A stretch of DNA of 64,000 nucleotides from Acidimicrobiia bacterium (GTDB lineage Bacteria; Actinomycetota; Acidimicrobiia; Spongiisociales; JAHEDJ01): NCBI GenBank assembly GCA_029210695.1, contig JARGFH010000013.1, forward strand, positions 1 to 64,000, read 5' to 3'. Shown one piece after another: positions 59,333 through 64,000 of this stretch; positions within the stretch are counted from its first letter, which is position 1; every line of letters begins with the position of its first letter. A model generated the notes under the pieces. The model was not told where the DNA came from, searched no databases, and saw nothing but the letters and a program-made list of their open reading frames with translations. The position numbers were made by a program, and so were the translations under genes.

Positions 59333-60099
59333 TGGTGAGAAGGGCCATCCTCCGTTGGGATCCACGGGTTCGCCGCGGTCGGCGGTTGCTCAAGGCGACG
59401 ACTTCACCGACGGGCCTGATCACCGGGTGCGCCGTATCCGTCGCCGGTCTGGCACTGGGGATCGGGGCACCCTGGCTGGTGGGCGCAGGGGTGGCCGCCT
59501 GGCTCACATCGGTGGTACTGCACCTACGCGACCCGAAACTGCTTGGCGCCATGCTGGCCCCGGAATTCGACCGTGACCTCTCCGCACTCGATGATCAGCA
59601 CCTTCCGGCCATGGTCGCCGCGCTCAGCGCCCGGGACCGGTTTGAAGCGGCCGTCGCCGACATGCCCGACCGCCAGGACTTCGCAGGCATGAAGGCTCGG
59701 GTGACCGAAGTGTTGCACCGGCTGTACGACTCGGTGGTGTGGACCCAGCGGGCCGACGGCTTCCTCACCTCGGTCGATGAACCGTCGCTCGCCCGACGGC
59801 TGCACGACCTTCCTCCATCCTCGCCTCTCGCTGCCGAGCTCGCCGAGCAGGCCGCCGAGATCGAGGGAGTCCGGCAACGCCGCAAGGAAACCGCGGCGCG
59901 TATCACTGCCGGAATCACGGGAATCGAAACGCTCGCTCTCAAGATGGGCAGCCTTGCCCTCGGGGCAGCCGACAGCCCGATCGAGACGATGCCGGCCGCC
60001 GAAGTACGCGCTCTCCGGGAAGAGCTGGATGCCTATGCAGACGGCCTAGAAGAGATCGAGCAGGATTTGCGGCGGGCCCTCCCTCCGACTCCGGCCTGA
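59332..60099 (+). CDS. Hypothetical protein with two N-terminal TM helices and a coiled-coil tail
   Basis: Hydrophobic hairpin followed by a helical region; start overlaps the vWA gene stop (TGATG). Confidence 0.75.
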   Translation: MVRRAILRWDPRVRRGRRLLKATTSPTGLITGCAVSVAGLALGIGAPWLVGAGVAAWLTSVVLHLRDPKLLGAMLAPEFDRDLSALDDQHLPAMVAALSARDRFEAAVADMPDRQDFAGMKARVTEVLHRLYDSVVWTQRADGFLTSVDEPSLARRLHDLPPSSPLAAELAEQAAEIEGVRQRRKETAARITAGITGIETLALKMGSLALGAADSPIETMPAAEVRALREELDAYADGLEEIEQDLRRALPPTPA

Positions 60100-60126
60100 C
60101 GCGCAGAACTGATCCTGTGCGGCCGC

Positions 60127-60741
60127 CTAGTCCCAGAGGGTGGGATGCAGAGTCACGGACCGGGCGACCAGGGGCTCACCCGGCTCGGCCGCGCCGACGA
60201 GGCGCTCGACGAGAGCGGCCCAGTCGAAACCCTCCGTTACCTCGGATGCCCGGATGGTCATCAGGCGGTCGTCGGGGACGTATTGCGGGAGTATGGCGTT
60301 GAGGATCACTTCGATCTCATCACGGAACTTGTCGTTGGTGCTCCGAACCCCGTCGACCCTGAGTGGAACGTCCGGCTTCAATCTGACAAACAGGTCGTAC
60401 GTCTCGCACCACTTCCTCACCAGTGGTTTGACCTCGAATGGGTCCTCTCCCCTCGTCGCCCGCAGGAAGTAGGCGAAGTTGTCGATCACGGCCCGGTCGG
60501 TGACCAGAACCTCGGCTCGTGTACGCAGTTCGAGTTCTTGTTGGATCTGCGCCATGATCACCCACAGCTGCGCTTCGGGAGTTGCACCCTCATTGAGGCC
60601 GAGCGGATTGAATCTGATGACTTCGCGACCGACCTCGACGCTGCGCCCGCTGCGGCCGACTGCGCCGGCGAAGGAGTGCACTGCATTGGTCTTGCGGACC
60701 GAATGGGATCCGATGAAGGCGATCTTCAAAGATGGTGTCAT
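60127..60741 (-). CDS. AAA_28/NadR-like P-loop nucleotide kinase family protein
   Basis: KIAFIGSHSVRKT, EV.R, VTDRAVID, YD, DGVR. Confidence 0.75.
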   Translation of the reverse strand: MTPSLKIAFIGSHSVRKTNAVHSFAGAVGRSGRSVEVGREVIRFNPLGLNEGATPEAQLWVIMAQIQQELELRTRAEVLVTDRAVIDNFAYFLRATRGEDPFEVKPLVRKWCETYDLFVRLKPDVPLRVDGVRSTNDKFRDEIEVILNAILPQYVPDDRLMTIRASEVTEGFDWAALVERLVGAAEPGEPLVARSVTLHPTLWD

Positions 60742-60855
60742 GCTGGCGGGATCCTTGTCGATTGCCGCAACGCTACCGGTTCGAAACCCGCAACATTCGC
60801 ATTGAGTCGCGAATCCGCACGATCGTTGCGATCGGCGTTGCCCTGGATGCGCGAT

Positions 60856-61368
60856 TCAGGGCAGGCGTTCGATTATGCCTCTGAGGTAGCGAGCCTGGCC
60901 GGCGTGCTGGAGATTGTCGCTGATGACGCTGACCAGGCGGACACCGACCGACACGGGCGGATCGTAGGAGTGGTCGATGATGCGATCGAGTTCTGATTCG
61001 TCGGCGCCTGCCAGGTATTCCATAGTGCGATCCATCACGGCTGAGTGATAGGCGACAAGCGCCTCCACCGAGATCGGAACCACCGCGGCCACATCGTCAG
61101 GGCCGTCACCGTATCCCGTCTCCGTGACCCCCCGGTTGATGCCGGTCCGTTCGGTCCAGCCCGGATCAGCCCACACCTGATCCGTGCCGGCGATCTCGGA
61201 GAGGTGATCGTCCTGGACACGGCTCAAGTGCCACACCAGCCAGGCAATTGAGTTGGAGCCCGACTCGGGCCTATAGATCAGGCCGGTCGGATCAAGGCCC
61301 TCGCTCGCGACTCCAACCAACTCCCGGATGCGCCGGTACGCCTCGATCAGCAGTGCACTCGTGTCCAT
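60856..61368 (-). CDS. DinB/mycothiol transferase (DUF664-like) protein
   Basis: NSIAWLVWHL, RLVSVISDNLQHAGQA. Confidence 0.88.
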   Translation of the reverse strand: MDTSALLIEAYRRIRELVGVASEGLDPTGLIYRPESGSNSIAWLVWHLSRVQDDHLSEIAGTDQVWADPGWTERTGINRGVTETGYGDGPDDVAAVVPISVEALVAYHSAVMDRTMEYLAGADESELDRIIDHSYDPPVSVGVRLVSVISDNLQHAGQARYLRGIIERLP

Positions 61369-61482
61369 GTTTCTGCCTCCTGTGGAATCTCCGATCAGTC
61401 CAGTCAACCATGCGTCGGTCGCGGGCGGCGCACGCCCGGATCGTTTCGCCTCCAACCCTGCTCGGCCGAGCTCACCCGTCCT

Positions 61483-61516
61483 AGAGCGGGCAGGCCCGAG
61501 AAATCCTGCCCGCTCT
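61483..61516. repeat. Inverted repeat AGAGCGGGCAGG…CCTGCCCGCTCT
   Basis: 12-bp arms with a 10-nt loop. Confidence 0.55.
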
Positions 61517-61557
61517 CTATCTTGAAGTCATGCTGATCAGCAGTTGCGCCCCCTGCA

Positions 61558-62346
61558 ATGCACGACGGATTCCTGCAGTGGGACGAGTCGTGTTTGACCC
61601 CAGGAATGCTCCTCGCAGGCTTCCGGGGAAGGACGTCTCTGTCTGGCAGGCTGACACTCACGTATGCCCCTCAGAGCTCTCCAGAGGAGATCCAAGCCTC
61701 CACGAGATCACCTCTCAAGGTAACGTGTGGCGATGCGCGGGCGGTTGCAGTGGGGATTCTCTTGGGAGTCTTCTGCGGGATCGCAAACGGTTGGCCGGTC
61801 GCGTCGACCCTCGCCCAAATGGCGACACCGTGGATCGGGGTTGCCGCATTCGTTGCCTATCGAGCGGCAGGAAGCAGCAAGCAGGCGGCGATGCTGGGAG
61901 CGGTCGCGTTGCTGGCTGCCAATGTCGCCTACTTCGCGGTTGGAGTAGCCGCTCGGGGCTCTTCAGGTCTTCCCTTTCTGGGCGGGATCGGTTTCTTCGC
62001 ATTGTGGACGACCGTCGGATTGCTCATAGGGCCGGTAACCGGGGTATTTGGATGGCGGCTGGCCGAGCATCGCACGGCGTTCACTGCGGTCGTGACTGTG
62101 GCCACCGTCTTGATGGCTGAGCCCTTGGCATTGTGGGTTCACGTCGACCACTTCGATTCCCACTTGGCGTGCCTCAGTGTTGCAGCCGCCGGCCTGGCGC
62201 TTCCGTTGATCTGGTTCCGTCGACAGTGGCGTCAGGCTGCGAAAGGGGTGGCCCTGGTGCTCGTCCTGGCTTACCCGGCGGCGGTGATTCTCGAGGCGGC
62301 CCTGATTGCACTCCGTCAGATCTCTGCCCCGATGAGACTCATTTGA
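61558..62346 (+). CDS. Multi-pass membrane protein (DUF6518-like); true start unclear
   Basis: About 6 TM segments; 'PW…AF', 'AYF', 'W..VG…GP..G..G'. Confidence 0.6.
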   Translation: MHDGFLQWDESCLTPGMLLAGFRGRTSLSGRLTLTYAPQSSPEEIQASTRSPLKVTCGDARAVAVGILLGVFCGIANGWPVASTLAQMATPWIGVAAFVAYRAAGSSKQAAMLGAVALLAANVAYFAVGVAARGSSGLPFLGGIGFFALWTTVGLLIGPVTGVFGWRLAEHRTAFTAVVTVATVLMAEPLALWVHVDHFDSHLACLSVAAAGLALPLIWFRRQWRQAAKGVALVLVLAYPAAVILEAALIALRQISAPMRLI

Positions 62347-62514
62347 GCCAACGCATATCGACGCCGATCGAATCATCACCGACTCCTCGAACCGGGAGTA
62401 TGTCGTCGATCCCGGATATTGGGTTGGCACTTTCCGTGATGGCGGCCAACAGCGATGGTGAGGCCGCCGCCCCCGCCGAAAGGCTGCAGCCCCTGCAAAT
62501 ACAGGGACTTCCGG

Positions 62515-62559
62515 TGGTCGGACTGGGGAGGTTTGAACTCCCGACCTCTTGACCCCCAG
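62515..62559 (-). tRNA. 3' half of tRNA-Pro(GGG) only (att-site duplication, not a functional tRNA)
   Basis: The minus strand reads CTGGGGG-TCAAG-AGGTC-GGGAG-TTCAAAC-CTCCC-CAGTCCG-ACCA. The D arm and 5' acceptor strand are absent. Confidence 0.88.
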
Positions 62560-62762
62560 ACGGGATCAGGGGGTGTCGGCGACCTGGCGATTCGGCGTTT
62601 TCTGCCTTCTGACCTGGGCTTTGACTGCTCATTGACTTTCATCGTTTTGCAGCGTTATTCATTCTCCCGCGGACTTTTCGCGGACTCTTGACACTTGAGC
62701 GGTATCGGACTCCGACCGAATGGCGATTCCCGGTCTCTCGTATTCGTCATGTAGGCCTGGTA

Positions 62763-62788
62763 TCCTTACGTCGCCTGATTAGTAAGGA
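62763..62788. promoter_or_regulatory. TA operon operator palindrome TCCTTAC-N12-GTAAGGA
   Basis: Inverted repeat overlapping the RBS of the antitoxin gene. Confidence 0.65.
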
Positions 62789-62797
62789 GCTACCCGA

Positions 62798-63046
62798 GTG
62801 GATCTCGCAGCCAAAGTCACATCGAAGGGCCAGATCACCATCCCCAAAGAAGTCCGGGAAGCGCTCGGTATAACCGAAGGCGACCAGATCGTATTCAGGG
62901 TGGAACAGCACCGCGCCATGCTCGCGAAGACCCCCAACCTCCTGGACCTCGCCGGCGCAGTAGACGTACCGACTGCCAAACGAGGAGTGGCCTGGGACGA
63001 GGTGCGACGCAGCACCCGGCAGGCCCGCGCTGAGGCGCGTCAGTGA
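62798..63046 (+). CDS. AbrB/MazE/SpoVT family antitoxin
   Basis: KVTSKGQITIPKEVREALGITEGD. Confidence 0.93.
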   Translation: MDLAAKVTSKGQITIPKEVREALGITEGDQIVFRVEQHRAMLAKTPNLLDLAGAVDVPTAKRGVAWDEVRRSTRQARAEARQ

Positions 63047-63435
63047 CGGCCTTCGTCGACACCAACGTCCTGATTAGACATCTGACCGGCGACCCTCCCG
63101 AGATGGCAGCACGCGCCACCGCCTTCCTAGCGGGAGCGGACGAGTTGCTCCTCCCCGACCTCATCGTTGCTGAGGTCGTCTACGTGCTCGAGTCCTACTA
63201 CGAGGTACCCACCGACGAGGTAGCCCGGTTGGTGCGCTCCGTGATCGCGTTCCCTCCCATCCGGACAATGGATCCCGCTCTGCTGCTACGGTCGCTCGAG
63301 GTGTACGAGACCCATCGGATCGACTTCGCCGAGGCGTACCTCGTCGCATCAGCCGAGGCCGCCGGAATAACCGACATCATCTCCTTCGACCGCAGCATCG
63401 ACCGCGTGACAACCGCCAACCGGATCGAACCCTGA
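63043..63435 (+). CDS. vapC: PIN-domain (VapC) toxin
   Basis: FVDTNVL, VAEV, DFAEA, SFDR; GTGA overlap with the antitoxin. Confidence 0.92.
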   Translation: MTAFVDTNVLIRHLTGDPPEMAARATAFLAGADELLLPDLIVAEVVYVLESYYEVPTDEVARLVRSVIAFPPIRTMDPALLLRSLEVYETHRIDFAEAYLVASAEAAGITDIISFDRSIDRVTTANRIEP

Positions 63436-63454
63436 CCGAGCGCCGAAGTGCCTG

Positions 63455-63670
63455 ATAGGTCTGTAGGTACGTTGCGGGAGTTTGTTCCGTAGCGTTGCAG
63501 GGGTCCCGGCGGGTGTGGCTCTCGAGGTGCCTGCCACCCGTTGGGTTGGCTTTCGAACGAGCTGACCTGCCTGCCGGGATCTTTGCTGGCGGTGTGGCTC
63601 GAAACAGGCGTAGCACCCAATCCGTATCGGGAGTGCCCACCGTCAGGTCCACCGACCCCGAGACACGAGG
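63455..63670 (+). ncRNA. IS110 left non-coding end; candidate bridge RNA
   Basis: About 220 nt of non-coding, highly pairable sequence directly 5' of an IS110 recombinase. Confidence 0.6.
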
Positions 63671-63679
63671 AGGTGTGTG

Positions 63680-64000
63680 ATGTCGGTGATTATTGGAGTG
63701 GACCCCCACAAAGGATCGCATGCGGCTGCGGCTGTGGATGCGGGTGAGGTAGCGGTGGCTGAAATCGAGGTGCGTGCCACTCGGAGCCAGACCAACGAGC
63801 TGCTGGGATGGGCAGAGCGGTTCCCTGCTCGGCGGTGGGCGATCGAGTCCGCCAACGGGCATGGCTATCTGCTGGCCCAACAGCTGATTGCCGCTGGGGA
63901 GCACGTGGTCGATGTGCCCTCCACCCTGTCTGCCCGAGTCCGGGTACTGGACTCGACCCGGTCGCAGAAGAACGACCCGAATGACGCTCGGGCGGTGGCG
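63680..64000 (+). CDS. IS110 family transposase/recombinase, N-terminal part (runs off the window)
   Basis: Manual translation: MSVIIGVDPHKGSH…WAIESANGHG…QKNDPNDARAVA (RuvC-like DEDD residues); GAGGAGG RBS. Confidence 0.93.
   Translation, partial: MSVIIGVDPHKGSHAAAAVDAGEVAVAEIEVRATRSQTNELLGWAERFPARRWAIESANGHGYLLAQQLIAAGEHVVDVPSTLSARVRVLDSTRSQKNDPNDARAVA

Follow-up and report, generated by a model that had tools for sequence, protein, structure and literature searches.

The window, a 64,000-nt stretch of DNA from an Acidimicrobiia bacterium, runs near its downstream edge from a tRNA-like fragment through a toxin-antitoxin module and a host repeat into the left end of an IS110 element. This left end spans 63453-63679 (about 224-227 nt), has a predicted bridge RNA inside it, and is followed by the start of the transposase gene. 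The features are as follows:

62516..62565, minus strand: 3′ fragment of a tRNA-Pro-like gene, identified by eye and not called by ARAGORN
62798..63046, plus strand: AbrB/MazE-type antitoxin gene of the module upstream of the target repeat (PF04014, E 4.4e-13)
63043..63435, plus strand: PIN/VapC toxin gene (PF01850, E 1.3e-15), whose stop codon directly abuts the repeat
63436..63450, plus strand: left half of the host repeat, which differs among the genome's four left ends and matches empty repeats
63444-63450, plus strand: left target (LT) CGAAGTG, within the left half of the host repeat
63451..63452, plus strand: predicted core CC, target-type (donor-type TC), with C63452 common to both element ends
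63453..63457, plus strand: right donor (RD) TGATA, the first element bases, covarying with the right donor guide (31 vs 1 independent pairs)
63456..63461, plus strand: candidate -10 box TAGGTC, which in the predicted circle would stand 17 bp from the TTGACA of the right end
63469..63495, plus strand: 5′ stem-loop of the predicted bridge RNA (MFE fold; 86.7% of cells paired)
63505..63578, plus strand: predicted target-binding domain, with outer stem, internal loop and inner stem-loop (63533-63550)
63523..63531, plus strand: putative left target guide (LTG) CGAGGUG-CC, 8/9 plus one wobble to its own flank
63554..63562, plus strand: putative right target guide (RTG) CGAAC-GA, which reads GTTCG and includes handshake positions 63561-63562
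63586..63646, plus strand: predicted donor-binding domain, closing stem 63586-63598 with 63635-63646
63602..63611, plus strand: putative left donor guide (LDG) AAACAGGC-GU, matching the genome's eight right ends
63625..63631, plus strand: putative right donor guide (RDG) UAUCG-GG, in which G63629 replaces the usual A as a wobble variant
63667..63673, plus strand: ribosome-binding site GAGGAGG, read from the sequence
63680..64000, plus strand: IS110 transposase, N-terminal DEDD domain (PF01548, E 1e-12), continuing past the window end

The tRNA-Pro-like fragment is likely the attachment remnant of an integrated island. Between 62516 and 63435 it is followed by the MazE/AbrB-VapC pair, whose end coincides with the start of the repeat, and this stretch looks like the edge of such an island with the toxin-antitoxin module as its first unit. 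A search by way of vapC orthologues in relatives produced no clean empty allele, the sequences diverging right after the stop codon, and an Rfam search of 60000-64000 retrieved no match.

The first-pass annotation of this DNA had proposed an IS110 bridge RNA here, and this identification holds: the left end contains the predicted RNA, and the ORF that starts at 63680 encodes an IS110 DEDD transposase (PF01548). The sequences that it quoted were also found where it had placed them, namely CGAAGTGCCTG at 63444-63454, CGAGGTGCCTG at 63523-63533, TATCGGG at 63625-63631, and both closing stems.

The transposase gene of this copy is interrupted by another IS at contig position ~64092, just beyond the window and before the Tnp domain (PF02371); the window covers the first 64000 of the 64212 bases of this contig, C44. 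The interrupting IS (C44 ~64092-64212) is multi-copy and contains HTH_32/HTH_29 domains; it is presumably IS630-like. The C140 copy of the IS110 element is broken near its end by another IS and the C178 copy is 5′-truncated, so that the assembly of this genome lacks an intact copy; the lineage has four left ends and eight right ends in it. The left ends have GTGCCTGATAGG in common and differ upstream of it, while the right ends have TTGACA..CAAACAGGC(A/C)TCG in common and differ downstream. The right end and right flank of the window's own copy were not found in the assembly. Elsewhere the right end is long (~190 nt past the stop codon) and conserved, begins GGCCCGGG (L254:101-300; C45, C92, C36), and may hold a second structured RNA or a terminator. 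The genome also contains several further IS110 lineages, whose right ends differ (C96, C12, C55, C137, C129, C77).

From relatives we parsed 83 distinct insertions, 50 of them with both ends, leaving out 22 unparsed anchor matches; alignment A1 contains 72 of the 80 distinct left ends. One insertion, L072 (genome G307), is counted in the totals of 83, 50 and 35 used here and is absent from alignments A1 and A2; genome G021 underlies none of the claims. At the protein level, the DEDD residues D8, E56, D99 and D102 are invariant in 32 homologues. The intact relative L050 carries both Pfam domains (PF02371, E 6.7e-18), with an SSG aligned to the ESG of IS621, and the structure model of an intact relative (pLDDT 88.8) has as its best PDB matches 9t56 and 8wt6 (ISCro4 and IS621) at 22-25% identity.

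RNAalifold was run on the 72 left ends and yielded an outer stem, a 13x13 internal loop, an inner stem-loop and a second long stem. In this consensus 95% of cells are paired and 19 of the 32 pairs show compensatory change, a level of pairing support exceeding all 500 shuffles and all slid controls. The target internal loop is formed by 63520-63532 and 63551-63563 and is 13x13 in 64 of the 72 sequences. The donor-domain closing stem is paired in 97.7% of cells, with compensatory change in 7 of its 12 pairs, and the 72-sequence consensus has no conserved inner stem in the donor domain. The 5′ stem-loop shows no covariation above shuffles, though it is conserved. Two stem domains with guide loops, backed by compensatory change, are a feature of the IS621 type and are present here.

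All four guides lie within the left end. Because kin are not independent, covariation was tested again on non-overlapping neighbour pairs with differing guides, the guides being taken from alignment columns in all tests. Across the 72 homologues, the LTG and the left flank change together at t2-t7 (21:7 independent pairs). The LDG and the right end have a C/G switch that is matched in 42/42 cases (17:0 pairs), and the RDG follows the first element bases in 31:1 pairs. For the RTG against the right target, t12-t13 are above shuffles with only 7:2 pairs (p 0.09), and t11 pairs in 13/42; the first handshake base follows donor position 7 in 8:1 pairs. We read these counts as covariation of three guides (LTG, LDG and RDG) with DNA, and as a trend for the fourth (RTG).

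The covariation across homologues that the first-pass annotation had proposed as a check was thus run, and most of its assignments came through. TATCGGG, put forward as a donor guide, appears to be specifically the RDG, covarying with the first element bases. The flank is external to the element and changes together with the guide; the flanks of other copies, when compared, differ. The 11-bp flank copy had been taken as the target guide; the LTG does start at 63523, but it is 9 nt long (63523-63531) rather than 11. As 63444-63450 is host repeat and 63453-63454 already lies in the element, only nine of the 11 bases are guide. The annotation had missed the putative RTG and LDG, the identity of the target repeat, and the CC/TC core proposed below.

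The right flanks of the insertions are part of a degenerate repeat of ~70-80 bp, which is also found empty, co-oriented and between small genes. A scan for empty repeats retrieved 70 matches from 35 of 251 genomes (3 matches with a reversed-pattern control). These empty copies read GTG-CC-GWT, with CT in 0/70, and the gap between GTGC and CGWT is zero bases in 63, one in 7 and two in none. Two further target subfamilies have a zero gap in 18/21 and 38/43 matches, each having been scanned in five hand-picked genomes and 39 of the 43 matches coming from one genome; none of their three two-base-gap cases contains CT. The 54 right-flank 12-mers have 116 other occurrences, of which 18 stand directly after GTGC and none after GCCT. 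The predicted 14-nt CC-register target of the window's copy occurs three times in the genome, always in repeats (0.56 expected).

Several other properties of the repeat were observed. Its copies are co-oriented, spaced at ~0.5-2 kb and separated by unrelated genes (C13, C16, C20, C23, C27, C28, C158), and the same repeat arrays occur at L195-L200 (G396) and L204-L206. In G396, 10-bp inverted arms flank GTGCCG, an arrangement that we take to resemble a tyrosine-recombinase site. C13 and C16 have the same left flank and different right halves of the repeat. No attC-like boxes (RYYYAAC/GTTRRRY) were seen in the target repeat by eye.

At the occupied sites, CC is found at 76/83 left junctions, and T then C at 50/50 right junctions. 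Six left junctions have T for C at core position 8 (L027/L050, L033, L057, L058, L067, L131); L033 and L058 have three donor-like bases and L027 has two extra bases. These T-bearing junctions may be heteroduplex conversions or half-match insertions.

One junction joins the two ends of an element. L254 is a 1429-bp metagenome contig, about one element long, of which 623 bases were seen; it runs from the transposase end through the right end and the left end to the transposase start, with 82-86% identity to L148/L150. The junction reads TTGACA-CAAAGAGG-GA-TC-TGGTT-GAGAAT, with one C common to both ends. It is a single end-to-end junction, its source being a relative outside the subclade of the window's copy, and is either a circle or a collapsed tandem. 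The metagenome scan that yielded L254 gave at least one real junction among the 117 stretches listed. End-to-end junctions of subclade 1 numbered zero in JGI metagenomes, none was detected in 401 class genomes, and none of 120 in viral contigs was real; a further search produced no junction and two loci without the element.

From the sequences of the junctions, empty sites and guides, we propose that CC (target)/TC (donor) is probably the core at which the recombinase crosses over, and not CT, the core of those members that are under development as genome-editing tools; we infer the cut position from the one junction in L254. The target would then be LT-CC-RT and the donor LD-TC-RD, with one C in common and a different base before it. 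In IS621, the 5′ loop strand adds up from 3 nt of linker, the 9-nt LTG and a single U (PMC11208158, available text). The strand here is likewise 13 nt, so that the LTG ends on CC, and the RTG and RDG are in matching register.

By analogy with IS621 and CazIS110, the element would form a circle, the junction of which would build a TTGACA-17-(-10) promoter driving an RNA of ~180 nt. In RNA run X16 the region appears as contigs that run on into the flank and so do not bear on expression. The LTG and LDG would pair with bottom strands and the RTG and RDG with top strands, and the top strands would be cut after the common C and then swapped. The first core base would be a fixed mismatch, each top-strand guide matching the incoming and not the resident base. 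Opposite position 8, the RTG has A in 72/72, the target there being C in 65/72 and the donor T in 42/42; the RDG nearly always has G there, Watson-Crick to the target C in 63/72. Since this A and this G pair best with the incoming strand at position 8, they would favour insertion. Left junctions keep the target C and right junctions the donor T, as top-strand-first transfer would give, and top-strand-dominant excision and insertion of the kind described for CazIS110-1 (10.1101/2025.10.25.684509, available text) would explain the target base on the left (76/83) and the donor base on the right (50/50).

A promoter scan of the linear locus returned none, as expected before circularisation. The L254-type junction places N-A-N-N-N-T (A-11/T-7) 17 bp from TTGACA in 32/35 subclade-2 elements. 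The candidate -10 is weak in the window's own subclade, where T-12 and A-11 are present in 14/14 and T-7 in 0/14. As for the protein, the second-position core T of IS621 is almost invariant and protein-read (PMC11208158, available text). The core-reading N84 of IS621, in its N84-P motif, has no Asn counterpart here, the clade having an invariant D-V-P instead; this fits a changed core, without proving it. IS621 G63 was also considered as a marker of core choice and is uninformative, as ISCro4 has Ser there and nevertheless uses CT.

Several observations count against the CC/TC model. The LDG is 2 nt out of register, and in a CT register, counted from the shared GGC motif, the LTG, RTG and LDG would all align equally. 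The RTG covaries weakly, T-7 is absent in the element's own subclade, and an exact 15-nt CT-register site is found once in the genome, at C159 (0.05 expected). After exchange, the donor loop at positions 6-7 pairs no better with the target than with the donor. Lastly, the X3 and X4 runs contain a 99%-identical allele of 63436-63456 that reads GTGCC-TGATTGAG and continues into repeat-like sequence. This allele (GTGCC-TGAT) is one base longer than the empty site predicted by the model; it may represent a variant of the repeat or else a scar left where a subclade-2 element was lost by microhomology.

The reading that best survives beside the CC/TC core, and that we nevertheless consider unlikely, has the cut one base further left, before the common C. 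There would be no shared core and no duplication, and the overlap would be GC in the target and AT or TT in the donor; put another way, the target would have no core and the donor a four-base AT+CT spacer, which gives the same sequences as the CC/TC model. Such a cut fits every junction, the empty sites and L254 equally well, would keep the T before the donor cut as in IS621, and agrees with the three donor-like bases of L033 and L058 and the two extra bases of L027. Insertion without duplication also has a precedent in ISEc21 (PMC11187229, available text). However, counting along the loop strands brings the LTG, RTG and RDG into register with CC/TC, and with this register it is donor position 7 that the handshake base follows, as in IS621; a cut further left would also need two mismatched overlap bases instead of one.

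A canonical CT core, with the element using rare CT-bearing repeats (target GTGC-CT-CGNT, donor AGGC-NT-GAT), strikes us as very improbable. The junctions do resemble LT-CT-RD and LD-NT-RT, the guides read CU and AG, and second-position T is nearly invariant in IS621 relatives; the X3/X4 allele can be written GTGC-CT-GAT, and the C159 site is exact over its 15 nt. In contrast, CT is found in 0/70, 0/21 and 0/43 of the empty-pattern matches. L254 contradicts a CT core, for it keeps T-C and then RD, two bases more than a shared CT core would give, and a shared-CT junction would set the -10 hexamer at 15 bp from TTGACA.

The first-pass annotation had drawn the target domain as multibranched, with two inner hairpins, and we think it highly improbable that this is the functional fold. 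Both hairpins can be drawn in this copy, and the donor domain lacks a conserved inner stem, but the hairpins are neither part of the minimum-energy fold nor conserved: 70.0% of cells are paired in one and 68.7% in the other, the compensatory pairs numbering 1 and 0, as against 90.9% and 99.3% for the helices of the internal-loop fold, and the 72-sequence consensus gives a simple 13x13 internal loop.

It is scarcely credible that the flank match arose by chance or by duplication within the element, common as one-mismatch 11-mers are window-wide, since flanks differ among copies and track the guide, with 234/360 LTG-flank identities at t1-t5 against a shuffled mean of 162 and maximum of 188. Within the left end, a flank-guide match of at least 10/11, as the first-pass annotation had reported, was reached by 43 of 20000 base shuffles. 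A match of this quality is unremarkable in the 64-kb window as a whole (3 found, 1.63 expected), and the case for a guide therefore rests on covariation and not on the single match.

Taking the CC/TC core as the preferred reading, we compared the element with characterized systems. Like IS621 and ISCro4/IS622, as far as the available texts describe them, it combines a DEDD domain with a Tnp-serine recombinase and has a predicted left-end RNA with a 5′ stem-loop and target and donor loops; the order LTG-RTG-LDG-RDG, handshake covariation at donor position 7, the predicted junction promoter and a repeat target also agree. A long non-coding end with the RNA upstream of the transposase is an IS110-group feature that is seen here, and the IS1111-group feature of an RNA in the right end is absent here. 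Unlike that of IS621, the core would be CC/TC instead of CT, with C in second position and with donor and target cores that differ; the LDG is 2 nt further from the core, the 3′ loop strand has 13 nt rather than 15, and there is no conserved inner donor stem. We conclude from sequence that the element shows the tested IS110-group features, would lack the CT-core feature of the IS621 subgroup, and seems to resemble IS621 in its working.

ISEc21, according to the available text of PMC11187229, is similar in its upstream non-coding region, in having the bottom-strand before the top-strand guide, in the circle with a junction promoter that is predicted here, and in inserting without a 2-bp duplication. 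It targets the coding sequence of IS3-family elements in enterobacteria, unlike the repeat targeted here, and that text describes no mismatched core. Use of one position of a repeated intergenic site is common to the present element, the IS1111-attC group (ISKpn4, ISPst6) and the REP targeting of ISPpu10/IS621 (PMC11187229; 10.64898/2026.03.19.712850, available texts). Compared with the IS1111-attC group, the element here has its predicted RNA in the left end, and its repeat does not look attC-like by eye; ISPpu10, by the same texts, uses CT.

On the question of the core, the available texts give CT for IS621, with AT, GT and TT tolerated, and AT, GT and TT swaps engineered by Durrant (PMC11208160); site choice in the human genome was filtered for CT or GT with identical cores (10.1101/2025.05.14.653916). 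Neither a natural second-position C nor this clade is described in the available text of PMC11208158, PMC11208160, PMC11187229, PMC13626964, 10.1101/2025.05.14.653916, 10.64898/2026.08.31.748434, 10.64898/2026.03.19.712850, 10.64898/2026.08.14.744561 or 10.1101/2025.10.25.684509. The searched text of the Durrant supplements names no natural non-CT cores, though figures and the remaining supplementary parts may list some. Our literature search retrieved no paper on IS110 in Acidimicrobiia. Insertion without duplication (ISEc21) and the targeting of repeats or attC (IS621, ISPpu10, ISKpn4) are already known from the published texts available to us. What would be new here is the CC/TC core and the displaced donor guide, the bridge RNA itself being of a known type.

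More tentatively, and at somewhat less than an even chance, we suggest that a widespread clade of Acidimicrobiia bridge recombinases reads C in place of T at the core and uses the fixed C/T mismatch as a ratchet towards insertion, with a donor two bases longer than the target, and is specialised on the boundaries of a gene-cassette system not yet described. Some 40 long reading frames are available for testing, together with the RNA, target and donor that match them. In such a clade, calling boundaries by a repeated CT would misplace the element by one base and would predict a target that is absent among the empty repeats. The core is the single fixed sequence requirement of bridge recombinases. 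If the ratchet reading is true, NC cores would be open to programmable recombination and the rule that donor and target cores match would be broken. A natural CC/TC clade, if true, would enlarge the range of targetable sequences and reveal what encodes the choice of core and the direction.
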